Shown: piece by piece, positions 283 through 64,000 of the stretch
Layout: each line of letters starts with the position of its first letter
Numbering within the stretch: the first letter of the stretch is position 1
Virus record (IMG/VR): IMGVR_UViG_3300042560_001229
Coordinates: 1-64,000 of that record
Source: a virus
Length of the DNA: 64,000 nt
Reading direction: 5' to 3' (one strand)
The notes under the pieces: model-generated
What the model saw: the letters and a program-made list of their open reading frames with translations, nothing else
Databases searched by the model: none
What the model was told of the DNA's origin: nothing
Program-made: the position numbers and the translations under genes

Positions 283-297
283 CTGCAACAGTTGCAA
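283..297. repeat. First copy of a dispersed 15-bp palindrome TTG(C/A)AAC(A/T)GTTGCAA (about 29 copies)
   Basis: Copies start at 283, 2063, 2919, 5509, 7430, 8561, 11550 (degenerate), 11644, 13031, 15055, 18455, 20081, 22040, 25041, 26743, 29015, 32763, 33706, 40250, 42198, 44618, 51297, 52542, 53958, 55943, 59844, 62390, 63351, 63992 (truncated). Confidence 0.97.
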
Positions 298-306
298 ACT
301 TTCTTT

Positions 307-342
307 TTGACAACGAATCACTCCTGTAAGAAGCTGCCTTAT
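307..342 (+). promoter_or_regulatory. Conserved phage promoter (TTGACA-ACGAATC..17 bp..GAAGCT), leaderless
   Basis: -35 at 307, -10 at 330-335, ATG at 343; palindrome 9 bp upstream. Confidence 0.85.
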
Positions 343-615
343 ATGAAATCCATCAAAATCCAAGACCGAGTAAAAGTGTGCGGGGAGAATGGAAGCTACC
401 GCGTGCAGAAGATCGAAGGCCGGAGCATCCAAGGGGTGCGGGTGTTCGAGGACGGCACCACCGGGAAGACGATCAAGTTTGACCGGCTGGATGTGAGTGA
501 GAACTACGCCCGCACGGAATCGAAGGATGACGGCAAGATGCCAGCGGTGTTAAGCCGCGACAGCCAACGGTTCGAGGCGCGGATGCTTAGGAAGCAAGCC
601 AAGGCCACCCGCTGA
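343..615 (+). CDS. hypothetical early protein (MKSI start)
   Basis: In-frame ATG just downstream of the promoter. Confidence 0.75.
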   Translation: MKSIKIQDRVKVCGENGSYRVQKIEGRSIQGVRVFEDGTTGKTIKFDRLDVSENYARTESKDDGKMPAVLSRDSQRFEARMLRKQAKATR

Positions 616-618
616 CTT

Positions 619-843
619 ATGACGATCAAGAATCAAACCGAATACCGGGTCGCCCTAGCGCGGCTGAGTCTCCTGATTGAACGTCACCCCGACCCACGCT
701 CCAAGGAAGGCAAGGAACTGCGGACGCTGACCGAAGCCTGTCACACCTACTCCACCTACCGTTCGGTGGGTTGCCTCGAACTGCTGACCACCCTCTATAC
801 CGGCCTCCGACCGGGCACCATGTATGCCTCCCCGAATCGCTGA
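619..843 (+). CDS. HigA antitoxin N-terminal-like small protein
   Basis: IKNQTEYRVALARLSLL..PDPRSKEGKELRTL resembles the HigA N-terminal helices; no HTH. Confidence 0.45.
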   Translation: MTIKNQTEYRVALARLSLLIERHPDPRSKEGKELRTLTEACHTYSTYRSVGCLELLTTLYTGLRPGTMYASPNR

Positions 844-846
844 CTT

Positions 847-1293
847 ATGAAGCTGAATGACCGAAACGATCTGAGAACGCTCCGCGTGGAGCTTGAAACC
901 GCCCTGCTGGATGTCCTGTCCAAGTATGACATGAGCGTGAAGCTGGGAGGCATGAAATACAGCGGCACCGGCACGGAGATGTCCGTGAAGCTGACCGTGG
1001 TGAAAGGGAACGCCGAAAAGTTCGCCAAGGCTGAGTTTGAGCGGGGCTGCGAAATGCACGCCTACCGCTTTCCGTGGTTGAAGCCCGAGCACTACCTGCT
1101 GCGTTTCTTCGAGCGCGGACACGAATATGTGTTGACTGGCGTAGGCGGCAGAGGACGATGCCCCTTTCATGTGAAACAGCTATCCAACGACAAAGGCTAC
1201 CGGGTGCCCGAATCGTGGGTGAAACGCGCTGTGGAGGCCATCCCTCCCACCATCGGACAGGACTTCCGCCCACGCCGCAAGTTGGAGCTATGA
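847..1293 (+). CDS. hypothetical protein, C-terminal RPRRKLEL tag
   Basis: 148-aa ORF, TGACTTATG junction. Confidence 0.8.
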   Translation: MKLNDRNDLRTLRVELETALLDVLSKYDMSVKLGGMKYSGTGTEMSVKLTVVKGNAEKFAKAEFERGCEMHAYRFPWLKPEHYLLRFFERGHEYVLTGVGGRGRCPFHVKQLSNDKGYRVPESWVKRAVEAIPPTIGQDFRPRRKLEL

Positions 1294-1985
1294 GCTTTCC
1301 CCACCAGAAACGACTCCGCAGGCGCGGCGCATTTGGCCCCAGCGAGTATGAGCAGCGCACCGCAACCAAAGGCACCAGTGCCTTGGCGAAACGACCGTGG
1401 TGCGACATGGGCGACTTTGTCCACTCCTTCCTACGGCGCGACGAACTGATAACACAGTTCGGTTTTGCCATCCCGAACGAGGAGGCGATCACCGCCCTTG
1501 CCCACTGCCCGCAGCCTATCGTGGAGGTAGGGGCAGGGTTGGCTTATTGGGCGTATCTGGTGAAGGAGCGGTATGGGGTGCATGTGGACTGCTACGATCT
1601 GGACATCCCGCCAACGAGCGCCAAGCATGGGACGAACGGCGGCGAGCGGCACGGCTACCACTTTGACCGGGAACCGTGGCATCCGGTGAAGGGTGGCACA
1701 CCGGAGTCCATCGGACGCAAGGAGTATCAGACGTTGCTGCTGATCTGGCCGGACTACTGTTCCCCTATGGCTCTGCAATGCCTGATGAAGTTCACCGGCA
1801 GCACGGTCGTCTATGTTGGTGAGGGAGACGGCGGCTGCACCGGAGACAACGCCTTCCACGAGGCACTGGAGAAGGAGTGGACTGCACTTGGCTACATCGA
1901 ACATCCGCAGTGGAGTGGGCTGAACGATTACATGACCATCTACCGGCGTTTGAGCGCAGACCCCACCCAACCCCTTCCCTCCTGA
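1290..1985 (+). CDS. class I SAM-dependent methyltransferase-like protein
   Basis: IVEVGAGLAYW motif I, LLLIWP, VVYVGE..GGCTG; ATGA overlap. Confidence 0.65.
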   Translation: MSFPHQKRLRRRGAFGPSEYEQRTATKGTSALAKRPWCDMGDFVHSFLRRDELITQFGFAIPNEEAITALAHCPQPIVEVGAGLAYWAYLVKERYGVHVDCYDLDIPPTSAKHGTNGGERHGYHFDREPWHPVKGGTPESIGRKEYQTLLLIWPDYCSPMALQCLMKFTGSTVVYVGEGDGGCTGDNAFHEALEKEWTALGYIEHPQWSGLNDYMTIYRRLSADPTQPLPS

Positions 1986-1992
1986 CGGCCAG

Positions 1993-2017
1993 CGATTCCT
2001 ACGCGATTCTCAGCGCA
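1993..2017 (+). repeat. Second repeat family CGATTCCTACGC(G/C)AT(T/C)CTCAGCGCA
   Basis: 23/25 match at 61824-61848; related copies at 21957-21981 and 27324-27339. Confidence 0.75.
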
Positions 2018-2085
2018 TCTGTGGCCTGCCTTTCCACCTTAAAAATCGGCCCCCAAACTATTTTGCAACAGTTGCAAAATAATCG

Positions 2086-2122
2086 TTGACGATGAATCGG
2101 TTTTGAGCCAAGGTTGACCTAT
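2086..2122 (+). promoter_or_regulatory. Conserved promoter with upstream palindrome
   Basis: TTGACG-ATGAATC, 17 bp, CAAGGT; ATG 2123. Confidence 0.85.
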
Positions 2123-2470
2123 ATGAAATCCACAAGTATCACCAAGAAAGCAGCCCTCGCCTTCATCCGCGAGAAGCTGTCCACGAACGATCAATGGGCC
2201 GTGCGCGGCCTCAAGGTTGTCTATGCCCGCCAGACGGAAAGCGAGAAGATGACCGAAGCCACGAAGGAGGACAACGGGGTTGGCTTCTCCGGTCTGGACG
2301 CGCAGTTCCTTACGTCCCTCGCCAAGCAGCACGAGGCACGCGGCTCCCTCAGTCCGAAGCAGATGGTCTGGCTGCGGAAGAAAATCTCGAAGTATGCCGC
2401 GCAGGTGCTCTCCGTGACGAACATGGAGAAGCTCGCCGCCCTGATGAACCCTCCTACCCCAGCCTCCTGA
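2123..2470 (+). CDS. conserved phage hypothetical protein (MKST start)
   Basis: NGVGFSGLDAQFLTSLAKQ..LSPKQ motif familiar from phage early genes. Confidence 0.8.
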   Translation: MKSTSITKKAALAFIREKLSTNDQWAVRGLKVVYARQTESEKMTEATKEDNGVGFSGLDAQFLTSLAKQHEARGSLSPKQMVWLRKKISKYAAQVLSVTNMEKLAALMNPPTPAS

Positions 2471-2473
2471 CTT

Positions 2474-2731
2474 ATGCTCGCCACTCAGAAATTTGAAATC
2501 ACTGAGCAGCAGGTGATGCAGGGTAGCGGACGGCCTGTGCAGTTCACAGCCGAAGCCAGCGACCTTGGACTGAAACCCGGCCAGTGGCCAACTGAACTGA
2601 CGATGAAGCGCGATGACGGAACTACCACCGAGTTCACCTTTGTTCGCCGAATCGAGCATGACGGTGATCTGGTTGCTGTGGTCTATGCCAGCCTTGGCCG
2701 CTGCGAGTTGCTGAACATTCAGAACGACTAA
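2474..2731 (+). CDS. hypothetical protein
   Basis: 85-aa ORF, TGACTTATG junction. Confidence 0.7.
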   Translation: MLATQKFEITEQQVMQGSGRPVQFTAEASDLGLKPGQWPTELTMKRDDGTTTEFTFVRRIEHDGDLVAVVYASLGRCELLNIQND

Positions 2732-2813
2732 TCCGACTTATGCGAAAATCCAGTTTTGACAGTTTTGCCTTCGTGAAGGTATCTACACCGAGCGTGCGAG
2801 GGGTATCTACACC

Positions 2814-3293
2814 ATGAGTCCGTTGGTGCGTGCAGCGTTTCCACCTTTCGCGCCCGGCGAAGCGGAGGCCAAGGCACAGGAGCTTTCGACCATGACGGGC
2901 TTCCCCTACGAGGAAGTTTTGCAACAGTTGCAACGTGTCCGCACCGAGGAAGTCTGGATGAACGAGACGTATCAGGTGAACGTGCGTAGGGGAGACGTTG
3001 GCGATCTGGTGCATCTCTCCATCAAGCGCAGGGACAAGCAGCCCGTCACTGACTGGCGCGACAAGCAGGCCATGAAGAACCAGCTTGTTGGGCCGGAGTG
3101 TGAGGGGATCGAGTTGTATCCTGCCGAGAGTCGCCTCGTTGACGGGGCCAATCAGTATCATCTGTGGTGCAGCAGTGACCCGGCTTTCCGCTTCCCGGTG
3201 GGCTGGGACACGCGCCACGTTTCGGACGGTTCCGGTGGCGGCGCGGTGCAGCGTCCTCGAAACATTCCGGTTGACCATGAATCCGTCCTGTGA
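2814..3293 (+). CDS. DUF7694-like phage protein
   Basis: HLSIKRRD..DWRDKQAMKN..GIELYPAESRLVD..YHLW. Confidence 0.7.
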   Translation: MSPLVRAAFPPFAPGEAEAKAQELSTMTGFPYEEVLQQLQRVRTEEVWMNETYQVNVRRGDVGDLVHLSIKRRDKQPVTDWRDKQAMKNQLVGPECEGIELYPAESRLVDGANQYHLWCSSDPAFRFPVGWDTRHVSDGSGGGAVQRPRNIPVDHESVL

Positions 3294-3307
3294 GAAGTTG
3301 CTGCCTT
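3271..3307 (+). promoter_or_regulatory. Conserved promoter (no palindrome)
   Basis: TTGACC-ATGAATC, 17 bp, GAAGTT; ATG 3308. Confidence 0.8.
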
Positions 3308-3829
3308 ATGAAATCCACCATCGAACTCGTTGAGCAAGCCCGAGAAATCTTCCGCCGTGTCTATGAGCCGCGAGGAATGCCCGCTGAGGCCGGATGCCTG
3401 CTCTGGTCTTGCGCCGTCCTCCACACCTTACACCAGCATGGGGTGAACGGGGTGTTGCAGGCAGGCACGACGAACTGGCCGCTCCTTCCCCGGCATCTGG
3501 ATGACGGCGTTTCGGCCACGCACTTTGGTTACGTGTTCGAGGCCGAAGTCGCCAAGGTGCGGTTCGCGCAAGGCTTGCTGCCCGAAGTCCATGTGTGGGT
3601 TGTTGTCCCCGAGACTGAGACGCTCATTGACATGACCACCGGCTTCCAGCCCGCGCAGTGCCGGAAGATGATCGGCAAGGAGTTCCATCCCGAGTCGGTG
3701 CCGCCTCCCTACTTTTGGGACAAGTTTGATCGCCTCCCCGATTGGTGGCGTTACAAGGCTGACCCGGTGGCCATCGCCATGATGCACGCCTTCGTCGTTG
3801 AGTATCACGAAATGGAGGTAGCCCGATGA
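3308..3829 (+). CDS. hypothetical protein, possible transglutaminase-like C/H/D triad
   Basis: GCLLWS, HVWVV, IDMT..Q; MKST start. Confidence 0.6.
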   Translation: MKSTIELVEQAREIFRRVYEPRGMPAEAGCLLWSCAVLHTLHQHGVNGVLQAGTTNWPLLPRHLDDGVSATHFGYVFEAEVAKVRFAQGLLPEVHVWVVVPETETLIDMTTGFQPAQCRKMIGKEFHPESVPPPYFWDKFDRLPDWWRYKADPVAIAMMHAFVVEYHEMEVAR

Positions 3830-4560
3830 GTCTGCCCGCTGGAGTCGTCTTAAATCAGGAACCTTACCGTCGGGCGGTGCTGTTCTTTACCGAAGGCTCG
3901 CGTGACAAGTATTACCGCATGAGCATCATGGAGGGCAGGCACCTTGCCACGCAGCGGATGTATCTGGTGGCCGACTACGGCAGGCGTGTCGGATACCTTG
4001 GCAACTATGTGAACTCCAGCCGTGCCCACCTTTACGGTGAGGGGCCGGTGAGTTTCTCCACCCGAGACAGGCTGACCGCCGAGGGTCTGACCCGGCTGGA
4101 GGCCAAGTTCGTCAAGGGTTACACCGAAAAGAGTCACGGCTGGCCGAACACCGGAACGTGGCACTTCATCCGCGCTGAGTTCGAGCGAGCGTTGAAGATG
4201 GTGGTTGCCACTGTCCCCGGCACCACGACGACAGGCCGCACTTATCCACCGTGGAGGTTGCCTGAGATTGTCGGTGGTCAGTGGCACCGGGACGACTTCA
4301 CCGAGGAGATGCTGGCGGGCGGTTACAGGCCGCTGCTGTTGGGCGAGAAAGACACCGCCGAAGACGAATACCTTACAGGGGATTCAGGATGGGCGAGGCT
4401 TGGCGGTCTTGCCTCTGGCAATGTCGAGGCATACTGGACTCGCCGCCGCACCAAGAGGCCGCTGCCTTATGGTGTGACGTTCGTTGGTGAAGCGGTGCTA
4501 CCGGGGTTTCGTGAAATGCCCCTCCTACCAGCGAAGCGCAGGAGACTTTTGGAATTATGA
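3826..4560 (+). CDS. WGR-like domain + GYRLL-type domain protein, C-terminal KRRRLLEL tag
   Basis: FTEGSRDKYY..YGRR..KFVKGY; GGYRPLLLGE. Confidence 0.65.
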   Translation: MSLPAGVVLNQEPYRRAVLFFTEGSRDKYYRMSIMEGRHLATQRMYLVADYGRRVGYLGNYVNSSRAHLYGEGPVSFSTRDRLTAEGLTRLEAKFVKGYTEKSHGWPNTGTWHFIRAEFERALKMVVATVPGTTTTGRTYPPWRLPEIVGGQWHRDDFTEEMLAGGYRPLLLGEKDTAEDEYLTGDSGWARLGGLASGNVEAYWTRRRTKRPLPYGVTFVGEAVLPGFREMPLLPAKRRRLLEL

Positions 4561-5416: not shown

Positions 5417-5533
5417 ATGTGTTACATGGCGTTGTGCGACTTCTTGCTCGGTCTGCACGCATCTGGTGGGCGGGGTCATCCTCTGTTGGGGAGGGTGGCC
5501 CCGTCTTTTTGCAACTGTTGCAAAAACAAATGG

Positions 5534-6813: not shown

Positions 6814-7433
6814 GAGTCGGCCCCGAGCATCCCGTCACTGTCACTCAGGATGGCGTAACCCGCTCTTACATTCTGGATGACTGGCAGAGAACTGAAACTC
6901 GTGGTGGTGGATGGCCGACCATCAGCTTGACTCTGCGCGAAGTGCCGAATGCAACCGCTAACCCTCACCATGAAGGTGAAGGTGAATGCCGACCTATCGA
7001 ACCGGGTGCTGGCTACCGCTGGCTGCTTGTGTCGGAACTGGATAACGCCCCAGCCGGGACGGAGTATTACGACAGTGGCGGGGAGTGGACTGCGAACGGT
7101 GAGTGGCCGAATATCCGCTCCACGAATTTCTGGTATCGGGTGCCTCTCGCAACGGATTACTGGATTCCTTCATCGCCCAGCCCCGCGACGTGCCCGCCGC
7201 TGCCCGATGGCTATCGGTTGCCGTTGCTGTCGGAACCGGATGTGGTGACACGCAAAATGATGTGGTGGTCTTGCTCCAGCGAAGCATGGGAGCGTAGTGA
7301 TAGGTCAACACTAGGCGCTAGTTACCGTCATTACTCTACCATATGGCATTGCGTGCCCATCCTTCCCTGTGAGATGACTGCCCCCGCGCCGGAACTTCCG
7401 GCTCGACGGACGAGACGAAAACTGGAATTTTGA
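6810..7433 (+). CDS. protein with two GYRLL-type domains, C-terminal RRKLEF tag
   Basis: GAGYRWLLVSE and PDGYRLPLLSE. Confidence 0.75.
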   Translation: MRVGPEHPVTVTQDGVTRSYILDDWQRTETRGGGWPTISLTLREVPNATANPHHEGEGECRPIEPGAGYRWLLVSELDNAPAGTEYYDSGGEWTANGEWPNIRSTNFWYRVPLATDYWIPSSPSPATCPPLPDGYRLPLLSEPDVVTRKMMWWSCSSEAWERSDRSTLGASYRHYSTIWHCVPILPCEMTAPAPELPARRTRRKLEF

Positions 7434-7449
7434 AACTGTTGCAAACACC

Positions 7450-8554: not shown

Positions 8555-8585
8555 GCCGGTTTGCAACTGTTGCAAAATTCTCTGT

Positions 8586-11284: not shown

Positions 11285-11617
11285 ATGAGCAACAAGACGA
11301 ACAGACGCATAGGGAAGTTTCGCATCAACCGCGAAGTCATGGACAACTGGCGGCAGGCAAACGGACTGCTGACCAACGTGTTCGTGCTCCGCTGTGAGTT
11401 CATGGAGGCTGACCGCTGCTTCCACTATGTCGCGCTGTGCGATGAGTTCGAGGAAGTCCAGTTGGGCGAGGAGCCACCTGAGTATGAAGTCATCGTGACC
11501 ACTCACGGAGATGGCAGTCAGACTGACTTTAGGTTTCGGCTGAACGAATTTGCCACAGTTTCAAAACGACTTCGGGCGCTGGACTTCTCGAAAACAGAAG
11601 CTAGGTCTGCTCCATAA
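11285..11617 (+). CDS. hypothetical protein
   Basis: In-frame ATG after previous stop. Confidence 0.65.
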   Translation: MSNKTNRRIGKFRINREVMDNWRQANGLLTNVFVLRCEFMEADRCFHYVALCDEFEEVQLGEEPPEYEVIVTTHGDGSQTDFRFRLNEFATVSKRLRALDFSKTEARSAP

Positions 11618-11700
11618 GGAAGAAAATCCATCGGTGGAAAACTTTGCAACTGTTGCAAATATCGCTTGTCCATGAAGCCGCTCAGAAAGAAGTTTGCGGC

Positions 11701-12835: not shown

Positions 12836-13579
12836 ATGAGAGTTCAAGTTGTTATACCTTCGTTTAGGCGAGCGAAGCTGTGTTTGTCTCATCGTCTGTT
12901 TTCCGATGCGTTAGTGTGCATACCTGATGATGAGGACTACGCGGAATATCTGGCTAGCGGTTTCACGAAAAAGCAGTTGCTTGTCCATTCGTCCAAGATG
13001 ATTGGGATAGCCCCGAAGCGGAACTGGATTCTGCAACAGTTTCAAAATGAGCCTGTGTTCATGGTTGACGACGACATGGAATCTTTTCATCGGGTTTATG
13101 GCAAACTCGGACAGACATCCAAGATAAAGGAAGTTGGGGCCGCGCAGGAGGTAATTAACAACCTAGCTCAGATGACTCATGATATGGGTGCCTTCATGTT
13201 CGGGCTTGGATGCTTTCCAGACCCCAAGCTGTTTGGCGTGGACAAGCCGTTTGCCATTACAGGGTTTATCCCCGGTGCAGCTATGGGTCTGCTTCCCGGT
13301 CACGGACTTAGTTTTGATACGCAGTTCCTACTACGGGACGACTTTGATATTTGCTGCATGAATGCCTTTAGGCACCGCATCTGTCTAAAGGAGAACCGCT
13401 TCACGTTCAGCACGGTTGAGATGTATAAGCGAGCCGGTGGTCAGGCGACTTACCGAACAGGCACCGTTGACGGTTCGTGCATTGAACGTCTTATCCTCAA
13501 GTATGGGAGTGATGTGATTATGCGGTCTGGCGTGATGGAAGGGCCGGTGGAGAAAATAAAGATGGTGCTCCCCTATTGA
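12836..13579 (+). CDS. TET-associated (TAGT/GREB1-like) glycosyltransferase 1
   Basis: VIPSFRR, GIAPKRNWIL, MVDDD, DDFD, GG..YR, LKYG. Confidence 0.8.
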   Translation: MRVQVVIPSFRRAKLCLSHRLFSDALVCIPDDEDYAEYLASGFTKKQLLVHSSKMIGIAPKRNWILQQFQNEPVFMVDDDMESFHRVYGKLGQTSKIKEVGAAQEVINNLAQMTHDMGAFMFGLGCFPDPKLFGVDKPFAITGFIPGAAMGLLPGHGLSFDTQFLLRDDFDICCMNAFRHRICLKENRFTFSTVEMYKRAGGQATYRTGTVDGSCIERLILKYGSDVIMRSGVMEGPVEKIKMVLPY

Positions 13580-14345: not shown

Positions 14346-15355
14346 TGAAGGTGCTGGTTGTAGGCAGTGGAATTAGCGGACTGGTCGCGGCCCGTTTGAT
14401 GCGAGATGCTGGGCATGATGTGGTCGTGCTGGAGACTCGTGAACATATCGGCGGGAACTGCTACGACTACAAGGATGCGCCTACTGGAGTGACGGTTCAC
14501 AAGTATGGCCCGCATTGTCTGCACACCAATTCGGATACGGTGGCTTTGTTCCTCCAACGCTTCGGGAAGTTCAACGATTTCAGTCCAGAAGTGTGGGGAC
14601 GCATAGGGGATGGGCGATTGGTGCCCGTTCCGTTCAACCTGCACGGTGCGGATTTGGTGGGGCCAAAGACACCCGAGGAGATTAGGGACATGATCTTCGT
14701 GGACTACTCTGAGAAGATGTGGGGCAGGCCGTGGGAGCAGATACCGGAGAACATCCGCAAGCGGTTGCCGGTTATGAGGGAAAGCCATGAACTGCGCTTC
14801 CACCAAACCAAGTATGTCGGAGTGCCGGTGGACGGATGGACGAGTCTGCTAAGTGCTATGGCCGAGGGGGTGACTGTCCATCTGAATACTATCTTGGGGG
14901 AATGGATTTCGTGGAGCAGGAATTGGGCAGACCTGACCATTTACACGGGAAAGCTGGATGCGTTTTACGGTTATCGGCACGGCAGGCTCCCTTATCGGAG
15001 TTTGGACATCAAGATTGAGCGCACCACGCGCCAGCGGCATTTCCAGATTAACGAATGCAACAGTTTCAATAAATGGACGCGGGCGTGTGACCAAGGATGG
15101 TGGTATGGGAAGCATGAGGATGCCACCATTGTCACGCGGGAGTATTCAGTTGACCACACACCGGAGAATGAGCCGTATTACCCGATGAGGCCGTTTAGCG
15201 GTGCAACGGAGATGTGGGAGAAGTATGATGCGCTGGCGAAGCATGAGTCGCGGACAGTATTCCTTGGGAGGCTGGCGAACTACACCTACATAGACATGGG
15301 TGTGGCTGTTGGAACGGTGTTGGGAAAAGTTGGGAAAATTACTGGAGTAGCATGA
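14345..15355 (+). CDS. glf: UDP-galactopyranose mutase 1
   Basis: GSGISG FAD motif, IGGNCYD, HKYGPH, LPYRSL, YYP, GRLANYTYIDM. Confidence 0.9.
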   Translation: MKVLVVGSGISGLVAARLMRDAGHDVVVLETREHIGGNCYDYKDAPTGVTVHKYGPHCLHTNSDTVALFLQRFGKFNDFSPEVWGRIGDGRLVPVPFNLHGADLVGPKTPEEIRDMIFVDYSEKMWGRPWEQIPENIRKRLPVMRESHELRFHQTKYVGVPVDGWTSLLSAMAEGVTVHLNTILGEWISWSRNWADLTIYTGKLDAFYGYRHGRLPYRSLDIKIERTTRQRHFQINECNSFNKWTRACDQGWWYGKHEDATIVTREYSVDHTPENEPYYPMRPFSGATEMWEKYDALAKHESRTVFLGRLANYTYIDMGVAVGTVLGKVGKITGVA

Positions 15356-18321: not shown

Positions 18322-18476
18322 TCCACACCCAAACCGCCTCTTAGGACAGGCCGCTCCAGAGGCCACAAAAGCCCCATACGTTGAGCAGGCTGGCTTCCCC
18401 ACTACCTACCCTCCAGAAGTTGCAAACGCCGGTTTCCAGTCATCGAAACTATTTTTGCAACAGTTGCAAATTCTTT

Positions 18477-19923: not shown

Positions 19924-20094
19924 AAACGATCACGAACATGAGGCAGTGCCCCAAAGGTCTGACCCGGCCTCAGCGCAAGGTGGTGAGCAGCATCCTCAGT
20001 CGCGTGCGGTTCAAGAAAGGCCGGGGTGTGGTGGTGCATTACTACCATCGGACTAGGGAAGTGCTCGCCCGCCCTCTATTTTGAAACTGTTGCA

Positions 20095-20436
20095 ATGAGC
20101 ACACCTACCAAAGAGCAAATCAAAGACGGGAGGAAGTGCTGGCGTCCGAAGATGCCGGAGCTATCCAAGGCATGTGCGAGTTGTCCGTTCATGGAAGGGA
20201 ACGATTCCGAGTTCGCCAAGATCATCGCCCGGCTCAGGCGGGTGAGTGTGCAGAACGTCCTCAAGTCCGACATCGAATATGCGCGGAGGAGTGTGAAACT
20301 GGACACTGTGCTGACCGGCAACTTCGCCTGCCATCACACCGCCTATGACTTGGAGAGCATGAAGCCCAAGCCGCAGACGGAGTTGCGCCAGTGCAAGGGA
20401 GCCGCTGACTGGTATCGCGCCGGAGGACAGATATGA
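20095..20436 (+). CDS. DUF6283-like Cys/His protein (paralog 2)
   Basis: CASCPF..FACH..CKGA; ATG overlaps palindrome. Confidence 0.7.
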   Translation: MSTPTKEQIKDGRKCWRPKMPELSKACASCPFMEGNDSEFAKIIARLRRVSVQNVLKSDIEYARRSVKLDTVLTGNFACHHTAYDLESMKPKPQTELRQCKGAADWYRAGGQI

Positions 20437-21912: not shown

Positions 21913-22062
21913 GCCCAAGGCGGTTCCTCACCCAAACCCCCACCCTCGGGGTCTGACGATTCTCAGGGCATCCTCAGCGATTCTGCTGATGGATTCCCCA
22001 CCTTCCCCAAGGTGGTTTGCCTCTTATGGGCCAACTATTTTGCAACTGTTGCAAAATATCTG

Positions 22063-25037: not shown

Positions 25038-25063
25038 CTTTTGAAACTGTTGCAAACTGACTT

Positions 25064-26577: not shown

Positions 26578-26775
26578 ATGGGTGTGCTCGTCAATCACTG
26601 GCCCACCCTCGCCCTAGTTGGATACTGCCTCGTTGGTCTGTCCATCTTCTCAGCTTACATCCGCTCGTCGTATGTAATGCTGAGAAGGTGGGAGGTAGTT
26701 CTGTTCGTCGTCTCCGGCCCGCTGGTCTGGCTGGTGGCAATTTTGAAACTGTTGCAAAGCAGGAGGGCACGGTGA
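26578..26775 (+). CDS. small membrane protein
   Basis: Two hydrophobic segments. Confidence 0.5.
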   Translation: MGVLVNHWPTLALVGYCLVGLSIFSAYIRSSYVMLRRWEVVLFVVSGPLVWLVAILKLLQSRRAR

Positions 26776-28737: not shown

Positions 28738-31700
28738 GTGCCCTGCTCCCACCCGCACCATCGTCTGTCATCCAGCAGGGTGTTCTCCCTACTGAGGAAG
28801 TCCCATGCTCCCGAGGGGGGCTGGAACGCTGCGAACTACCACGGAGTCCACGCGGAGCGGCTGGTGCAGGATTTCATCAAAGTCCACAAGACCGCACAGG
28901 CGAGAGGCATCCGCTCGCTGACGGAGTATCTCAAGGCGAAGTTCAAGGAGTTGGTGAACATCGTCATTCAGGAAGTCACGGAGCGGAAGATTCGGCTCGG
29001 TCAGACGAAGGGTCTTGCAACTGTTGCAAAAGCACTGGAGTTCACGGTGAATCCTGCCGGTGACAGCAATCTGTGGATGGAGGCCATTGCCGGTGCGATG
29101 CGGGACTACGATAAGGAAGTGATCGTGGAGATGCTGCCTCGGATGCAGAGCGTAGCCTCCGAAGTGTTTGGCAAGACCACGGTGCTGCTCGGCGGTGAGG
29201 TAGGGAAGGACGCTGCGAACATTGTCCATGCTGAGATGAAAGACTTGGCCAAGCTGGTCACGCGCATCAATGAAACGACGCGCAACCAGATGGCGACGAT
29301 CATCCGAGAAGGCATCGAAGCCGGTGACTCTGTGAGCGGGGTGGCACAACGGCTGCGGGATGCCCTTCCGCAAAAGCTGTGGCCGCGCATTCCCACCATT
29401 GCCCGCACGGAGATGGGCAGGGCTGCGGACAAGGGCAGTGCGCTGGCCATGATGAAGTCCGGTGTGGTGAAGACGGTCATGGTCATCGGCTGCAAGGCCA
29501 TTGAGCCGGGGATTCCCACTTATCATGGGGTGCCGACTTGCAACATCGAACACGTCCCGGTTGAGGACGCCGCGCTGCTGCAATTCCACATCAATCACAC
29601 CGGGACGATTGTGCCGGAGTCGTTCTTCGATGATGACCGCGCACCCGCCTCCCTACCACCTTTGGATTCACCGGCAGATGAGTTGAAGCTGGCGCGTGGT
29701 GCGGAGGGCAGTTTGTCTTCAAGGCCGATTGAATTTGCCGGTGCGGAGGAGGCTGAGTTTCTGGCCAAGGAGTTGGCCGAGGATAACATCCTCATTCAGC
29801 CCACCGCGTTGAAGGCCATGCAAAGTGGCTTCGGCATGTCGCCGGTCGCGCTGAGAAATGCCTTGATGGAGGATGCGGTGCCCAAGGATGGCTACCTTCC
29901 GGCGAAGATGATTATGACCCAGCAGGAGAAGGGTCTGTGGAGCATCCTGTCCAAGATTTGCCCGGTGAAACCCGGCAAGGCCGAAGGCGATGATGGATGC
30001 AACACTTTGGCGATGGTCTATGACCTAAATGAGAAAGCGGTCGGGCAGGGCATCCACACCATGCACGAAACGATAAAGGCCAAGGCTGTTGGCAAGCAGG
30101 CGTTAGCCAACCATTTGGCCACGATGGATTCGCTCGGCATCAAGAAGATGAGTCTGGAGGCAAACATTGACAAAGGCGGGTTTGCATGGGCGCGTTACGG
30201 ATTCGTGCCCACCGACCCGAACGGGCTGGCTGGGCAGTTGCTCAAGAAATACACGAGCGCGGTATTCGACTCCCTGCCTAAAGCCGATGCTAGTCATGTG
30301 TTGGGTCTTATCTCCCGGCTGACGATGGGTGATGCCAAGGCGGTGTGGGAGATCGCCGCTTTGAAAATGACCGGCCCCGGTGGGATGGGAATTGGCGATT
30401 GGTTGTTGCGCGGAACCAAGTGGCAGGCGCAACTCGATCTGACGGACAAGGTGGCCTACAAAATGTTCAAGAAGTATGTGACTGACAAGGGAGTGGCCTC
30501 TGCTGGTGTTGCGCTGCCGCCGAAGATTCTTCCTGCAATGGTGCCCAAGCCGCTGAGTGCCCCGGTAGTCTCTGCGGCACCCATCAGCATGTCCGGGGTG
30601 CAGTTCCCGACCATTGCGGAATTGAAGGATACAGGCACGCGCATCGGCGGAACTACTGGTGCCCGACTCATGGTGGACTCCAAGGGCAAGCGGTGGGTGC
30701 TCAAGGATGGCCGTGGGGCTGTTGGAACCATCACGGAGGAAGTTCACGCTGACAATGCTTACCGGGCGATGGGCGTGAATGTGCCGAACAGTATCCTGAT
30801 GACCGAGGGTGGAGTGACGGTCAAAATCTCCGAGTTCATGGAGGGAGGGGTGACGCTGAACGACTACGCGCTCTCGGCCAGCAAGGGAGACATCGCGGCG
30901 ATGTATGCCAAGATCAGGAAGGGCTTTGCCGCTGATGCGCTGCTGGGAAATTGGGACGTGATTGGCATGGACGCTGATAACATCCTCATTGTGAAAGGCG
31001 TCCCCTATCGGATTGATAACGGTGGGTCGCTGCGCTACCGGGCGCAGGGTTCCCTCAAGGGAGCCGCGTGGAATGAGCATCCGGTGGAGTTGTGGACGAT
31101 GCGTGGCGAACGCTTCTCATCTGGTGCCGCTGCACAGGCCAAGAAGGTGTTCGGTGAAATCGGGGACAAGGCGGAACTGACCATTTATGATCTGGCACGG
31201 CAGATTGATGCCATTGATCGCAAGGCGTTGCTGGAGTCGCTGCCCGAGGAGTTGCGGGACACGGTGGGCAAGCGTCTGACCTCCCTAAAGTCCATCGCAA
31301 GAAAGGCCAAGGATTACGAAAAGGATGACTGGAATCATGGCAATACTGACCGTGTGACCTTTGGCATAATGGAGTTGCGAGAGGCAGGTATATCGAAGAA
31401 GCTGGAGAAAACACTGGATTTTGCTAAGAGCAGGGGTGTTAGACGCGCTAGCTGGGAGATGACGGATGACGCAGGCAAGTCGTTTGGTGGTCTGCGGGAC
31501 AAAGGTGGTGCCGGTCAGGAGTTTTGGGATTTGCTGAGAAAGAAGCATGGGCCGGAGGGCGTGGATGTCTTGCGTGCGTGGCACAATGCACAGGCTGGTG
31601 GTTCGTGGAGTCCTGAGTCCGTTGGCTTGAAACATTGGCTCACTAATCAGAGGCACGCCATCGCCGGGAAAGTTGAACGCTATTGGGGTCGTGGGAATAT

Positions 31701-32678: not shown

Positions 32679-33071
32679 ATGTGGGTAGCCTCGAAATACG
32701 GTTTCTTCTCCATCGTGAAAAAGGACGGCGGCTGGCACATCCGCGCTCGCAAGGCGGCGGATTTGAAACTGTTGCAAAAAGCCGTGGGCAGCACGTTCGC
32801 CGGGGAGAAGATTCACCTGACCCCGGATGCCGACTACTGCGCCCGCATCTTCATCACCGACCATTCGGACGGTCGCGGTGCGGTGCAGATTGACCGCATC
32901 ATGTCCGCGCTGGGTGAGTCCGTGGACTACGGAAACTTCAAGAGCATGATCGCTGAGACTCCCGACCAGCAGGATAAGTTGCCCGCCTACCATCGCATGT
33001 GGAGTGCAATGTTTGACTTCCAGATGAGCATGGCATCGCGTAAGGTCAGGACATGGCTGAAAAGAATCTGA
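32679..33071 (+). CDS. conserved phage hypothetical protein
   Basis: MW.ASKYGFFSIV..IRAR..ADY..DYGNFK. Confidence 0.75.
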   Translation: MWVASKYGFFSIVKKDGGWHIRARKAADLKLLQKAVGSTFAGEKIHLTPDADYCARIFITDHSDGRGAVQIDRIMSALGESVDYGNFKSMIAETPDQQDKLPAYHRMWSAMFDFQMSMASRKVRTWLKRI

Positions 33072-33699: not shown

Positions 33700-33729
33700 G
33701 CCGTTCTGCAACTGTTGCAAAAATCCACC

Positions 33730-39952: not shown

Positions 39953-40253
39953 GGCACTCAAAACAGGATTAGCGGCACTGGCCGAACTGACCAAGGAACT
40001 GCGCGAGCAGAAACTCAAAGAGTCGGGGATACCGCCGTGGGTTTCGGTGCTGGTAACTATCATGGTTCCGACGATTGGGCTGATCTTGTGGTTCGGGAAG
40101 CTGGACTCGCGGATGCAGAATTTAGATCAGGCCAGCACGACTGCTCACAGGCGACTGGATGCCAGTGATCTCGTCATCAGAGAAAATGCCTCCAAGACCT
40201 CCCGCAGGTTGCGCGTGATTGAAAGAAAGCTGGACTTGCCGGATGGGGAATGA
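39939..40253 (+). CDS. single-TM membrane protein (lysis cassette)
   Basis: One hydrophobic helix plus coiled coil. Confidence 0.6.
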   Translation: MSEDEALKTGLAALAELTKELREQKLKESGIPPWVSVLVTIMVPTIGLILWFGKLDSRMQNLDQASTTAHRRLDASDLVIRENASKTSRRLRVIERKLDLPDGE

Positions 40254-40266
40254 AACTGTTGCAAAC

Positions 40267-42196: not shown

Positions 42197-42354
42197 TTTG
42201 CAACTGTTGCAAAGTTTTTGTTGACTCGCTGTTCGCGCTCTGCTGATTTGCAGCGCAACGAAGAAAATCGAAAAAGCCTTGAGAGGGGAGTATCGAAGCC
42301 GCTTCGCAAAAGTCCAACTCAGCAAGTCAACTCAGTAAAAACCAAACTCATAAA

Positions 42355-44616: not shown

Positions 44617-44634
44617 TTTGCAACTGTTGCAAAC

Positions 44635-51220: not shown

Positions 51221-51745
51221 GTGAGTATTAAGATGCCAGTGTTCAAGTGCAGTGAGAAGGCGTTGGAAGACGCGCTGAACCTGCTGGCTCGTGGAATTGA
51301 AACTGTTGCAAACCGCTCCACGATAAACACGGCAGGCGGGCTGCTGTTCAGGCAGGACGAGTCAGGGGTAACTCTGGAGGAGATGCCCGATGAGGACACG
51401 TCTGGAAGGCATGACTCGCCCTACGAGATGGGAACCACGGCTTACGGCAGTGATGACCCCGAGAACCCGACAGCCCGGCCTGCGCTGACGAGCGCCATGA
51501 CGGACACCGGCATCGTGGGTATTCAGCCACTCGACTACGTTGGCAGTGACCCGACGTTTGGATTCAATGTGCAGGTAGTGACTCGCAGGATTTTTTACAA
51601 CCCGGCGTCTGGTGCTTTCGATGTCCGAATGTTTGTCCGTGACCTTATTTTTGATTCCAAAGGCAGGCTCTACAAGATCACCGCCGAGAAGATAGTGGAG
51701 GAGTCCAACATTGTTGGCACCGGCAGTAACGGAGGAGGAATATGA
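51221..51745 (+). CDS. putative tail tip protein
   Basis: Synteny. Confidence 0.5.
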   Translation: MSIKMPVFKCSEKALEDALNLLARGIETVANRSTINTAGGLLFRQDESGVTLEEMPDEDTSGRHDSPYEMGTTAYGSDDPENPTARPALTSAMTDTGIVGIQPLDYVGSDPTFGFNVQVVTRRIFYNPASGAFDVRMFVRDLIFDSKGRLYKITAEKIVEESNIVGTGSNGGGI

Positions 51746-53692: not shown

Positions 53693-53961
53693 GCAACTAC
53701 GTTTCCCGAGCATGGCTGCAATCCGTGGCCGCAGAGTTCCGCATTCAGATGAGCGGGCTGGAGACGAAGAAGGAACTGACCGCAGCGCGGAAGATCATGG
53801 AGTCCTTCATGGCCTGCTGCTCTTGGCGGAATCCACGGTTCAGTAAGGAGAAGTTTCGAGAGGCGTCCGATTATGATCGCCCTCCGGTCAAGCGAAAGCG
53901 CACCCGGCGACCCTCCACCATTACTCAAGATCGCAAGCCCCGGCGCATTCTGGAAATTTGA
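53689..53961 (+). CDS. hypothetical protein, C-terminal KPRRILEI tag
   Basis: NPRFSKEKFREA; stop lies in palindrome. Confidence 0.7.
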   Translation: MSNYVSRAWLQSVAAEFRIQMSGLETKKELTAARKIMESFMACCSWRNPRFSKEKFREASDYDRPPVKRKRTRRPSTITQDRKPRRILEI

Positions 53962-53981
53962 AACTGTTGCAAAATAAACGA

Positions 53982-55832: not shown

Positions 55833-55965
55833 AAGTGAGTTTTCCTTGGCCAAAAAGAGTCCTCCTAGTTGTTTTGGTGGCCTTTCCCACCATCCACCCT
55901 CTTGTGAGCGCAAACGATGGTTTCCAGCGAAATGAGTCTTTTTTGCAACTGTTGCAAAATAATCG

Positions 55966-58177: not shown

Positions 58178-58256
58178 CAGTCGCCACAAATGACCACCAC
58201 GTTGCGAATGACCCTCTACCCATACCAATCCACCAGAATGAAAGGAGCAGCCCACC

Positions 58257-59535: not shown

Positions 59536-59840
59536 GCAAGAACCAAGTGCTTGTGCCGATGGAGACAATGTGCCCGACCTGCCCGTTCCGGCCCGAGGGC
59601 TATACCGAAGTTCGCAGCCTGCTGGTTGAACGTGCGACGAGCGAGGCGACACCCATCTGCCACTCGACCGGGGACACAGAGATTGTCCCTCCAGAAGATC
59701 GGCTGGACGCCAACCCAAGGGCGTGCCGGGGTGCGCGGAATCTGCAACTGCAACGCTTTGCCAAGATGGGGTTCATCACCGCCCCGACTGACGAGGCATG
59801 GTTTGCCAAGTGCAAGGAAATGGGACTCCCGACACCGTGA
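59532..59840 (+). CDS. DUF6283-like Cys/His protein (paralog 3)
   Basis: CPTCPF..PICH..CRGA. Confidence 0.7.
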   Translation: MSKNQVLVPMETMCPTCPFRPEGYTEVRSLLVERATSEATPICHSTGDTEIVPPEDRLDANPRACRGARNLQLQRFAKMGFITAPTDEAWFAKCKEMGLPTP

Positions 59841-59879
59841 CCTTTGAAACTGTTGCAAAATCTTTTTGAAAATTTCGGA

Positions 59880-59961
59880 TTGACCACGAATCAGTCATGG
59901 TCTAAGTTTCAGTTCACCGCAGCTACAACCCGCCCAACAGGGCACAGCAGAAACAGACAGT
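59880..59961 (+). promoter_or_regulatory. Conserved promoter + leader shared with 56475
   Basis: TTGACC-ACGAATCAGTCA, TAAGTT; leader TTCACCGCAGCTACAACC. Confidence 0.8.
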
Positions 59962-60402
59962 ATGAGTAAAACGACCACCATTAACAAAGTCCCGATTCGG
60001 GACATCGCCGCCCTGCATTCCGCAGCGACGGACTTGAAGAACGCCGGAGTGAATTGCTCCCTCGTTGCCAACACCGGATGCCGCCTCTGGTATTCGGAGC
60101 AGCAGTGCGCCTACGTGCTCAAGCTGCCTGACTGCCAGTTCGACCTTGGCATCGTCAAGAACGGGGATGGCACCTATTCCACCGTGACCGATCTGCACGC
60201 CGGTTTGGTGTCCCGGCAGATTGGGCAGACCGCCCCGCCGTCCTGTGGCTTCACGCCCGAGGAGTTGGCCATCGGCAAGTTCATGCAGGAGTATGGCAAG
60301 CACGCCGCCATCAATGCCGCAATGGAGGCAGGCCACCAAGTAAGCGGCTGCTACCTTGACGAGCAAGGCGAGTATCAGTTGGAACTCGAAGTCACCCTCT
60401 AA
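59962..60402 (+). CDS. DUF1257 (Ycf35)-like protein
   Basis: MS.TTTI..IRD..AL..A..DL; DLGIVKN.DGTY..D; QEY..A...G..V..G.Y.L. Confidence 0.65.
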   Translation: MSKTTTINKVPIRDIAALHSAATDLKNAGVNCSLVANTGCRLWYSEQQCAYVLKLPDCQFDLGIVKNGDGTYSTVTDLHAGLVSRQIGQTAPPSCGFTPEELAIGKFMQEYGKHAAINAAMEAGHQVSGCYLDEQGEYQLELEVTL

Positions 60403-62220: not shown

Positions 62221-62253
62221 GCACACGCAATAGGGACGGTGAGAAAGTAGCCA

Positions 62254-62290
62254 TTGACAACGAAACGTCCTCTCTGATAGCGTCTTACCC
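62254..62290 (+). promoter_or_regulatory. Promoter variant
   Basis: TTGACA-ACGAAAC..TAGCGT; ATG 62291. Confidence 0.7.
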
Positions 62291-62632
62291 ATGAAGAAAG
62301 ACATCGAAAAGTATCTGATACCGGGCGACCGTCCGCTGGTCATCCTTCCCGAACTGGCTAGGGAGTTGGGTTTGGAGCAGGCGGTGGTTTTGCAACAGTT
62401 GCATTGGCTGCTGAGGGACGAGCGCAACGGCAAATTGCTGAAAGATGGGAAGCGGTGGGTGTTCAACACTTACGAGGATTGGGTGAAGAATTACTTCGTG
62501 TGGATGAGCGAGCGCACCCTCCGCAGAGTGTTCACAGAACTGGAGACGCTGGGTGCCATTGAGTCGTGCCAGCCCGAAGGTGGTATCTCCCGGCGCAAAT
62601 ACTACCGAATGCTGATAGGAGGAACGAAGTGA
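62291..62632 (+). CDS. phage replication initiator N-terminal winged-helix domain (short)
   Basis: LARELGLEQAVVLQQLHW..GKRWVFNTYEDW..SERTLRR..L..G. Confidence 0.8.
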   Translation: MKKDIEKYLIPGDRPLVILPELARELGLEQAVVLQQLHWLLRDERNGKLLKDGKRWVFNTYEDWVKNYFVWMSERTLRRVFTELETLGAIESCQPEGGISRRKYYRMLIGGTK

Positions 62633-62637
62633 GAAAC

Positions 62638-62708
62638 CATGTGGCCATTTTGGACGCATCCACCGGCCATCCTGACCGCTTCCTCATGCGGCCAATTTGG
62701 ACGGTTCC
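62638..62708 (+). repeat. iteron-like imperfect repeats (candidate ori)
   Basis: GGCCATTTTGGACGCATC, GGCCATCCTGACCGCTTC, GGCCAATTTGGACGGTTC. Confidence 0.55.
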
Positions 62709-62774
62709 TATAACAAGAAGGACTGCAAGCATCACCGACAAGAACTGCTCGCGCAGACGCGAGGTAGGAGGGCT

Positions 62775-63485
62775 ATGCTGAAAGTCTCGACCAAACCCAA
62801 GGCCACGGAGCCGCCCCCTACCATGAGCCTTGATGAACGGGTGGCAAGGGCCACGGAACGCTGTGACACCATCCGGCAGAAGAAGAAGCAGAAAGCCGCC
62901 GAGTCCGGTCTGTGCTCGGCGCGGGAGTTGCGGAAGCTGTGGCTTAGTGCTGGCGGTGCGACCGTGCTGCCGGTGACGACGCAGGACGCCATCATCCTTC
63001 ACCAAGAAATGAAACGCCACGCGGCGCGGAAGGAGAAAGTCGGGTTCATTGAACTGATGGAGTGGAGCATCGCCAACTGGCCGCTGATGATGGACGCGCA
63101 TTTTCACACCATGCAGAACCGGCCCGAGTTACCGGCCATCCGCTTTTTCGTGAAGTGCATCGGCAAGTTCCTGTTCGCTTACGATGAACGCGGCAGGCTG
63201 GAGCGCATGGCGAACATGACGACCCGCGAACGCATGGTGGACACCCTGATGCGGAGGAAGGGCATGACGCAGGCGGCAGCGGAGCGGGAGGTTGATGAAC
63301 GCCTTGGCCTGACCAAGCTGAAAGCCGAGATTGAAACCGAACGCCGGAAATTGCAACAGTTGCAAGACCGGCACCAGCAAACCAAAGAAACCGAAGAAAG
63401 AATCGCCATGATGAACCGAACCGTGCAGCGCAAGGAACTGCGAGCCGTGCAGGGTGTGGGAGGCACCTACGAGCAATGGACTTAG
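62775..63485 (+). CDS. hypothetical replication-region protein
   Basis: AGGAGG upstream; C-terminal coiled coil. Confidence 0.7.
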   Translation: MLKVSTKPKATEPPPTMSLDERVARATERCDTIRQKKKQKAAESGLCSARELRKLWLSAGGATVLPVTTQDAIILHQEMKRHAARKEKVGFIELMEWSIANWPLMMDAHFHTMQNRPELPAIRFFVKCIGKFLFAYDERGRLERMANMTTRERMVDTLMRRKGMTQAAAEREVDERLGLTKLKAEIETERRKLQQLQDRHQQTKETEERIAMMNRTVQRKELRAVQGVGGTYEQWT

Positions 63486-64000
63486 ACGACCCGCAAACCA
63501 AGGTGGTGAACGATGCGGTGGAGCAATCCATCCTCCGTGCCGGTATCCCGAAGCAGTTCGCCCGCAAGTCGGAGCAGTTGAGGAACTACGGACTGAGGGG
63601 CATGGCACTGGACGATATGTTTTCCTCCGGTGAAATGTCCACCCTCCTAGCCGGTGGCGGTGGCCTTTACTTCGAGGGTGACTCGCCGGAACTGTTTGCC
63701 CGCTTCCATCTGACTTGCCGGGGTGTGCTGCGGAGGCATCTGCCTTTGTCGGTGCTGTCCCTGCCCACCTTCCGTCAGGTGGTCTGCGGAAAGAACTACG
63801 ACGAAACGATTTCGAGGGTGGTGGTGCTGGCCATTGGCGGGTTTTACGACAAGACCTACAAGCAACCGTTCTCCGAGGAAGACCTGTTCACGATGGGTTG
63901 GTATCTGCGCGAGTGGGTCATGTCCGGCAAGGCGCTGATACTCCAAGGCTCCCTGCCATTGGGCCGCTGCGATTGGTGGTCGGACTCACTTTTGCAACTG
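63476..64000 (+). CDS. DnaC/IstB-like helicase loader, degenerate P-loop (runs off window)
   Basis: ILRAGIPKQF, GLYFEGDS (no GKT), VLAIGG; open to the window end. Confidence 0.5.
   Translation, partial: MDLDDPQTKVVNDAVEQSILRAGIPKQFARKSEQLRNYGLRGMALDDMFSSGEMSTLLAGGGGLYFEGDSPELFARFHLTCRGVLRRHLPLSVLSLPTFRQVVCGKNYDETISRVVVLAIGGFYDKTYKQPFSEEDLFTMGWYLREWVMSGKALILQGSLPLGRCDWWSDSLLQL

Follow-up and report, generated by a model that had tools for sequence, protein, structure and literature searches.

Dispersed ParB-family sites influence gene expression in the N15 phage-plasmid (SopB/sopC), which has four such sites and a full ParA/ParB pair. KorB, a member of the ParB superfamily, has 12 O_B operators on the IncP plasmid RK2 (PMC11790492; PDB 1r71). 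In Cluster A mycobacteriophages, the L5 gp71-type repressor has 20–35 stoperator sites located in intergenic gaps and gene interiors (PMC9283540, PMC6550527). Cluster O mycobacteriophages (the Corndog group) carry more than 30 dispersed copies of a 17-bp repeat, TGTTCGG-N3-CCGAACA, with unexplained function; the authors suggested a dimeric binder and reported that the repeat is absent from the host genome (PMC4351075). Here we describe a dispersed 15-letter palindrome, TTG(C/A)AAC-W-GTTGCAA, in the phage genome of IMG/VR virus record IMGVR_UViG_3300042560_001229, and a candidate reader for it, a 395-amino-acid (aa) protein encoded by the same phage.

The record (G000) is 81,219 bp long with 58% G+C, ends in a 127-bp direct terminal repeat and has essentially all genes on the + strand. 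Its bases 1–64000 are the 64,000-nucleotide window analyzed here. Genes beyond the window were located on L136 (L136:15576-16763 is genome 79576-80763; L136:2149-5055 is genome 66149-69055). The phage was found in lake-water metagenomes. Only DNA runs kept as contigs contain it, and no RNA dataset containing it is listed among the sequencing runs. Contigs from the lake-water runs are identical to the window and therefore give no population variation. Megablast of 20 kb found no near relative among cultured phages.

The palindrome occurs about once per 2 kb, and its dyad reaches ~17 bp with flanking T and A. The exact pattern TTGCAACWGTTGCAA is present 12 times in the window and 0 times in shuffled sequences. 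Allowing up to two mismatches gives 28 window sites versus 0.15 in shuffles (maximum 1), plus a 29th site that crosses the window end (63992-64006); the entire genome has 38. The original prediction, made from the letters of the window alone, had claimed about 29 copies and asked for a comparison with shuffled expectation, which the observed count far exceeds. Sites are also spaced more evenly than random placement, with a coefficient of variation of 0.64 in G000 (p=0.0015), 0.70 in the related contig C350 and 0.50 in Aeromonas phage HJ05 (each p<=0.002).

We sorted the 38 sites by our own classification into 15 promoter, 10 junction and 13 intragenic sites, with about two thirds of the copies at gene boundaries. 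Just past a stop codon lie 18 of the 38; in 5000 random trials the mean was 7.2 and the highest count 17. Six genome sites, four of them in the window, supply the upstream gene with its stop codon through the TGA in T-TGA-AAC, and a start codon comes 0–10 nt later. A seventh, site 59844, has a TGA in frame for overlapping open reading frames (ORFs), shortly before a promoter cassette. All three frames are used by the intragenic copies (LQQLQ, A/ETVA and CNSC). Copy excess, use of three reading frames, even spacing and post-stop enrichment all speak for selection on the palindrome at the DNA level. The earlier claims about placement were borne out: all eleven sites placed 7–10 bp upstream of a -35-like hexamer are there, ahead of a TTGAC-type hexamer; the six copies between 7430 and 44618 said to adjoin stop or start codons do so; and the reading of intragenic copies in three frames, proposed as a sign of DNA-level selection, is supported (LQQLQ/LKLLQ, ATVA/ETVA and CNSC/CNSF).

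Most promoter-class sites lie 7–10 bp upstream of a -35 hexamer, and the others 21–29 bp. The hexamer usually belongs to a cassette that recurs 23 times in the genome (positions include 307-345, 2086-2125, 3271, 18477, 22063, 23305, 53982 and 55966) and reads TTGACnAYGAAWCRGT, a 17-bp spacer counted from the TTGAC hexamer, nAAGnT, and an ATG ~7 nt on. It resembles a sigma70-type promoter. The ATG often reads ATGAAATCCAC (MKST...), which suggests that cassette transcripts may be leaderless mRNAs. A site is found upstream of the -35 in 14 of the 23 G000 cassettes (12 at 7–10 bp, two at 21 and 29 bp), in 6 of 11 cassettes of Rhizobium phage L338C and in 3–4 of 8 in HJ05. The 15th promoter-class site of G000, 42198, falls outside the cassette pattern, 8 bp upstream of TTGACT. 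Sites thus occur beyond cassettes and cassettes without sites, yet 14 of 23 are paired, so the two elements are separable but strongly coupled. The spacer block GAATCGGTT and a CCAAGTT element are common to the promoters of G000 and L338C (TTGACAAAGGATCGGTTCCAAGTTAGATT). One contig in public assemblies connects 22109 back to 18471; this join is most likely an assembly-graph effect of repeated palindrome-plus-promoter cassettes.

The sites are polar. The imperfect half-site is on the left (upstream) only in 16 G000 sites and on the right only in 1, and the weak half-site TTGAAAC is nearly always the upstream one. HJ05 shows the same polarity (8 versus 1), mostly at intergenic sites, and the two bases at the center of its sites are TG in 13 cases and CA in 3. 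The weak-left, strong-right arrangement recurs in unrelated loci (L151, L153 and L159); C350 is symmetric. Three fully reversed copies (11550, 13031 and 15055) are degenerate and lie at 11.5–15.1 kb, within a lower-GC cassette of ParB-like, TET-associated glycosyltransferase (TAGT) and UDP-galactopyranose mutase genes; the single orientation with this one exception, as originally noted, is real. Polarity is explained in part by the TGA of TTGAAAC serving as a stop codon. Because it also holds at HJ05 intergenic sites and in other lineages, half-site polarity is probably functional.

Half-sites vary independently and never in a compensatory manner; in C350 the imperfection is confined to the left half in 12 sites and to the right half in 11, and 8 sites have it in both halves. 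The predicted hairpin of the core has a folding energy of -3.1 kcal/mol, reaching -8.2 kcal/mol with flanks, and the TTGAAAC form does not fold (0 kcal/mol). An A-tract, not a U-tract, lies downstream of the site, and several HJ05 copies are placed between an intrinsic terminator and the promoter after it. The stable G+C-rich hairpin, U-tract and compensatory pairing of a terminator or RNA hairpin were all lacking. Non-compensatory variants and loss of the hairpin indicate that the element is recognized as double-stranded DNA, not as a hairpin.

We reached cultured relatives through a shared AAA ATPase. The core TGCAA-N3/4-TTGCA is present in cultured phages of Aeromonas, Rhizobium, Rhodobacter, Pseudomonas, Stenotrophomonas, Agrobacterium and Vibrio and in many uncultured ones, so the search in related phages that had been proposed as a check was positive. 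The group has genomes of 80–110 kb. Motif-bearing genomes span 45–63% G+C and their hosts are unrelated, with the sequence itself conserved. Six larger genomes have 14–41 core copies per genome or 50-kb segment (expected 0.03–0.1), with a lineage-specific gap between half-sites, and the ~12-kb fragments L067 and L119 have 2–4. TTGCAAC-NN-GTTGCAA is found 27 times in HJ05 and TGCAAC-NN-GTTGCA 24 times in 50 kb of L338C; the form is TGCAATCGATTGCA in Rhodobacter phage RcMenchie and TGCAA-RCGY-TTGCA in Pseudomonas phage SM1. L067, a 50%-identical fragment, shares both the palindrome and the TTGACAACGAAWC promoter with G000. C350 is a 97-kb contig with 66 copies, binned with a Chitinophagaceae metagenome-assembled genome (MAG). 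All 35 exact copies in that 7-Mb MAG are on C350, which argues that the reader is encoded by the phage.

The motif also varies within the clade. Of 80 IMG/VR loci encoding AAA homologs, the closer ones show variants that include TGCAAT-YR-ATTGCA, CAATCGATTG, TGAAAT-YR-ATTTCA, TTGAAAA-NN-TTTTCAA and TTTGCA-N5-TGCAAA. The TGCAA-type site is absent from most of the distant loci, a few of which have unrelated dispersed palindromes (L170 and L179). G004 (IMGVR_UViG_3300020156_000025), the closest relative for PolA, RecA, DnaB and the AAA ATPase, has 38 sites and keeps the outer half-sites TTTGCA...TGCAAA around an asymmetric 5-nt center (AACYG), so the inner bases of the G000 palindrome are not universally required. 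Exact-pattern scans of sequence collections gave mostly single chance matches, and the palindrome-plus-promoter pattern gave only L067 and C350 as true relatives. A 16.7-kb viral contig, L072 (IMGVR_UViG_3300046539_000052), has eight TTGCAAC-N-GTTGCAA copies clustered in 3.2 kb (1487-4715), unlike the dispersed lattice of G000. None of the motif strings was found in a phage context in the literature searched, and palindromes go unmentioned in both the DLP3 paper and the Rhodobacter phage paper; no description of the site system was found in the searchable literature.

Eight protein families are common to six reference genomes: PolA with a uracil-DNA-glycosylase (UDG) domain, the AAA ATPase, DnaB, primase, helicase, RecA, exonuclease and an unannotated 395-aa family (phrog_17202). 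In G000 this last gene is at genome 79576-80763, 15.6 kb beyond the window, and its homologs include HJ05 WEV89389.1, L338C gp074 (YP_009003231.1), SM1 gp050 (YP_009594461.1), DLP5 FDJ07_gp066 and RcMenchie gp84. The family is present in every motif-bearing record at least 90% complete and absent from three complete motif-less phages that retain the AAA ATPase. Four cultured phages picked solely by a 395-aa homolog all have sites (4/4; SIO-2 14, DLP5 31, RcZahn 10 and JP1 34), while the Cluster O phage Firecracker has 0. A site lies 82–155 bp upstream of the 395-aa gene in 9 of 10 genomes, and also in RcMenchie, C350, DLP5, RcZahn and JP1, usually with a promoter 7–8 bp downstream of it. For ten other conserved genes, an upstream site is found in 0–5 of 12. 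Judged by its position, the site at the gene's own promoter is a signature of autoregulation. The AAA ATPase was rejected as sufficient because it is present in phages without the clade motif (G024, G025, G027 and Firecracker). A protein detected by DLP3 virion proteomics, 'gp_066', is the product of the gene next to the candidate and not the candidate itself.

Sequence searches of Pfam, PHROGs and PDB were uninformative for the candidate. AlphaFold2 (AF2) models predict an SH3/Tudor-like N-terminal barrel, a disordered Lys/Ala/Pro-rich linker and a helical domain. The linker is histone-H1-like, and some homologs match the Hc2 histone-like family PF07382. A domain-only AF2 model of the helical domain (pLDDT 86) matched only 8 PDB chains at Z>=5, which were the Raf1 alpha-domain and DNA-binding domains (DBDs) of the ParB superfamily: ParB-parS 6s6h (Z 8.4, root-mean-square deviation 4.0, 116 aa), Spo0J 1vz0 (Z 8.0, 105 aa) and the KorB DBD-operator complexes 1r71 (Z 6.2, 106 aa) and 8qa8 (Z 5.8) were among them. 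SopB, VirB and P1 ParB came next (Z 4.4–4.7). The helical domain is thus predicted to have a ParB/KorB/Spo0J-type DNA-binding fold. No ParBc/Srx CTPase domain was found in the 395-aa protein or its 25 homologs with Pfam and PHROGs.

On balance, we favor a reading in which a phage-encoded dimer docks at the palindromes as operator-like sites on double-stranded DNA, with the candidate 395-aa protein as the most likely reader. By analogy, its most likely function would be that of a KorB-like genome-wide regulator or organizer. We infer that the protein binds the dyads as a dimer, on duplex DNA, and that it regulates, with either sign. At promoter-class sites, binding 7–10 bp upstream of the -35 would modulate ~15 sigma70-type promoters, including the candidate's own. 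The dyad center is near -51, so a bound protein would occupy the zone of the UP-element and the alpha-subunit C-terminal domain (alpha-CTD), and this occupancy could repress or activate cassette promoters. The evenly spaced junction and intragenic copies may be polar roadblocks or nucleation points that mark and organize the whole phage chromosome, an action modeled on KorB at the O_B sites of RK2. A more elaborate version, which we hold only tentatively and think doubtful, is that a CTPase-less ParB-derived protein with a histone-H1-like tail forms a chromosome-wide lattice on 30–60 evenly spaced palindromes. This lattice would mark and compact the DNA as 'self', for a replication/packaging compartment or an extrachromosomal prophage, and would gate sigma70 promoters, with half-site polarity setting direction; the system would be common to the 80–110 kb siphophage clade in Proteobacteria and other hosts.

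KorB/O_B is similar in having one 13–16 bp palindrome dispersed over a replicon, with some copies directly upstream of the -35 and others distant from promoters, and in having a site in the regulator's own operon; the predicted DBD of the candidate also matches KorB/ParB DBDs. It differs in several respects. The candidate lacks the N-terminal CTPase clamp used in KorB sliding and has an SH3-like domain and histone-H1-like linker instead. The phages have 30–60 sites rather than 12, on a tailed-phage genome whose genes share one strand, and their half-sites are polar. No KorA-like or IncC (ParA) partner was found with Pfam and PHROGs in the ~75 phage proteins scanned, ~60 small ORFs being outside the scan. 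N15 similarly has ParB-family sites scattered over a phage genome, but its four sites come with a ParA/ParB pair, and no ParA was found among the ~75 proteins scanned here.

The Cluster O repeat is likewise a 7-bp inverted repeat in short intergenic regions, at gene 5' ends and in gene interiors, and the AAA ATPase has a homolog in these phages (~30% identical). However, the resemblance is of kind only: the sequence is unrelated, Firecracker has no TGMAA-type site, the reported orientation is weak and few Cluster O sites are near promoters. No Mycobacterium phage matched the candidate reader (tblastn, E<=1e-3). Stoperators are also oriented with transcription, and one phage protein acts at promoters and within operons. 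They differ in being asymmetric 13–14 bp sites for a monomeric two-domain repressor in a temperate phage. The element here is a dyad of two equal half-sites with polarity only in the tolerated weak half-site, and no immunity repressor or integrase was found in the scanned proteins.

Several observations weigh against the 395-aa protein as a KorB-like reader. The fold match is modest (Z 6–8 for the helical domain), neither candidate model has a Foldseek match in PDB at E<=0.001 (E>1), and no Pfam family is assigned. As the protein varies together with the entire replication/recombination module, phyletic patterns cannot single it out. Its putative recognition helix does not follow the half-site variants cleanly: YRKAMYLIKIY is found both in HJ05 and in G017, a TGAAAT phage, and the RcMenchie helix is divergent yet TGCAAT is kept. 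Vibrio phage SIO-2 and G021 have no strict-pattern site within 200 bp of the gene. ParA, integrase and a classical (CI-type) repressor were not found in the ~75 scanned proteins.

MerR-type proteins bind palindromes as dimers. The reader could be another conserved protein, first of all a MerR/Xis-like helix-turn-helix (HTH) protein (genome 74984-75673, between the helicase and RecA genes), although we consider this unlikely. The family is present in G000, HJ05, L338C, SM1, RcMenchie, G005, G013, G016, G017 and G021, its sub-families group with motif classes, and the HJ05 ortholog has a sub-threshold HTH_17 match (E 9e-5). Orthologs are annotated as 'HTH DNA binding' in RcMenchie and 'transcriptional regulator' in DLP3, where gp55 is annotated as a regulator (PMC7326821). 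But the gene has no conserved upstream site, because it is inside an operon behind the helicase; the family is weak or undetected in C350 and G004, which have 66 and 38 sites; and the SM1 and G013 helices are nearly identical, while the inner motif bases differ. The protein also co-varies with the rest of the module, as the 395-aa protein does.

Primase sites known from other systems are 3–5 nt long. This length argues against sites that are cis-elements of the replication/recombination module (primase or helicase loading, dispersed origins or recombination hot spots) rather than operators, an explanation to which we give little credence. The motif does track a module of DnaB, PolA(UDG), primase, SSB-like protein, helicase, RecA, resolvase and exonuclease and not the head and tail genes, which differ among G000, C350 and HJ05, and even spacing at 1.5–3 kb and strand polarity would fit. 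However, such elements would not be expected to show the 7–10 bp coupling to the -35, boundary enrichment or a conserved site at one gene's promoter, and the central base and perfect palindromes hold little strand information.

It is very improbable that the reader is a host factor (a global regulator or RNA polymerase subunit) or that the sites are targets of modification or restriction enzymes. TTGCAA resembles a -35 hexamer, and is in fact the -35 hexamer of HJ05's own promoters, and G000 has a DNA-hypermodification cassette. Yet no copy occurs elsewhere in the MAG holding C350, hosts span Alpha- and Gammaproteobacteria and probably other groups, modification genes are not common across the clade, and ~40 sites per genome are too few to matter for anti-restriction.

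Next to no weight goes to a hairpin or cruciform, whether it would act as a terminator in RNA, as a signal for processing or translation or as a DNA hairpin promoter of the N4 kind. The perfect dyad with a 3–4 nt center, the many copies 0–30 nt ahead of start codons and the fold with flanks would suit it. The folding, U-tract and non-compensatory variation described above do not; in addition, sequence and not pairing is conserved across hosts, the copies between terminator and promoter are outside the main transcripts, and no giant vRNAP or T7-like RNAP was found among the scanned proteins.

The original prediction's general idea of a dimeric phage protein acting at promoters and genome-wide fits our results, but its three proposed binders do not. 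That the sites are parS-like sites of the ParB-like protein (12082; ORF 12043-12834) or operators of the wHTH protein 62291 or ORF 23009-23296 (23033) is barely credible: the first has a ParB-like N-domain (phrog_620, E 8e-23) with site and promoter 11644 just upstream and the wHTH gene holds a site, but the ParB-like protein has only that N-terminal-type domain, belongs to the TAGT/GLF modification cassette and has a homolog in only one of ten motif-bearing relatives (G004), the wHTH protein has a DnaD/replication-initiator-like N-domain, ORF 23009 has no family match, and neither of these two has a homolog in the ten.

Table 1. Palindrome sites in the window, with position, orientation of asymmetric copies and context
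Site	Position	Strand	Context
CTGCAACAGTTGCAA	283..297		promoter class, 9 bp to TTGACA
perfect	2063..2077		promoter class, 8 bp to TTGACG
perfect	2919..2933		within gene 2814-3293, frame LQQLQ
perfect	5509..5523		promoter class, 10 bp to TTGACC; directly past RNase H gene
TTGAAAC variant	7430..7444	+	junction; TGA is upstream stop, ATG 5 nt past site
perfect	8561..8575		promoter class, 10 bp
degenerate reversed, 2 mismatches	11550..11564	-	intragenic
perfect	11644..11658		promoter class, 7 bp to TTGTCC; precedes ParB-like/TAGT/GLF cassette
degenerate reversed, 2 mismatches	13031..13045	-	within TAGT gene 1
degenerate reversed, 2 mismatches	15055..15069	-	within UDP-galactopyranose mutase gene 1
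perfect	18455..18469		promoter class, 7 bp; past TerL
TTGAAAC variant	20081..20095	+	junction; TGA stop, following ATG overlaps site end
perfect	22040..22054		promoter class, 8 bp
TTGAAAC variant	25041..25055	+	junction; adjoins tRNA-like 3' end; ATG 8 nt past site
TTGAAAC variant	26743..26757	+	14 nt before GTG with AGGAGG ahead; junction or gene 5' end
perfect	29015..29029		within 1165-aa head-morphogenesis-like gene, ATVA frame
TTGAAAC variant	32763..32777	+	within gene 32595-33071, frame LKLLQ
CTGCAAC variant	33706..33720		junction; stop 6 nt ahead, ATG 9 nt past
ATGAAAC variant	40250..40264	+	junction; TGA stop, ATG 2 nt past
perfect	42198..42212		8 bp upstream of TTGACT; precedes major capsid gene
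perfect	44618..44632		junction; stop directly ahead, ATG 2 nt past
TTGAAAC variant	51297..51311	+	within gene 51221-51745, frame ETVA
TTGAAACCGTTGCAA	52542..52556	+	promoter class, 9 bp
TTGAAAC variant	53958..53972	+	promoter class, 9 bp; TGA is upstream stop codon
perfect	55943..55957		promoter class, 8 bp
TTGAAAC variant	59844..59858	+	21 bp upstream of promoter cassette preceding DUF1257 gene
TTGCAACAGTTGCAT	62390..62404		within DnaD-like wHTH gene
perfect	63351..63365		within gene 62697-63485
perfect	63992..64000 (full 63992-64006)		near end of gene 63476-64030

Some neighboring genes and sequences were also noted. Directly before site 25041, at 24990-25040, is a tRNA-like T-arm and acceptor 3' end (GGGTTCGACTCCCGG...CTACTCCACC), at which ARAGORN calls no tRNA. 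The cassette at 12043-16380, just upstream of TerL (16813), has 54% GC and encodes the ParB-N-like protein, two TET-associated glycosyltransferases and two UDP-galactopyranose mutases; it is probably a sugar hypermodification system for DNA. An ATP-dependent DNA ligase gene is at 23594-24649, and a type IB topoisomerase gene (34033-35496) lies in the head block, with the 1165-aa MuF-like gene on one side and the prohead protease on the other.

A conserved run at 54541-60402 encodes an MgsA_C-domain protein, the AAA ATPase (phrog_8638), a 207-aa protein and a DUF1257 protein. Apart from the first, these genes are syntenic in C350 and HJ05. The AAA ATPase with one or both small proteins recurs in L338C, SM1 and RcMenchie, and the AAA ATPase is also found in Cluster O mycobacteriophages. 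Pfam and PDB searches were blank for g58257 and g59962, except for the DUF1257 match of g59962. The family A DNA polymerase (genome 66149-69055) has an N-terminal uracil-DNA-glycosylase-like domain; this fusion is kept throughout the clade, and SM1 gp037 carries the same annotation.

If the favored reading is true, the palindromes and the 395-aa protein would form an undescribed genome-wide DNA-marking or regulation system common to many cultured phages, including Aeromonas HJ05, Rhizobium L338C, Pseudomonas Samunavirus, Stenotrophomonas DLP3/DLP5, Agrobacterium JP1, Rhodobacter RcF/RcZahn and Vibrio SIO-2/VHS1-like phages, some of them under study for therapy or biocontrol. The hypothesis can be tested directly, as phages available in culture have an identified candidate gene as well as identified sites. 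Being compact and orthogonal, the site and protein are a possible synthetic-biology part. The system could help explain gene timing or silencing in these phages, of which DLP5 and DLP3 persist as phagemids, that is, extrachromosomal prophages (PMC5834331, PMC7326821). A ParB DNA-binding domain without its clamp module would extend the ParB/KorB paradigm to tailed phages.

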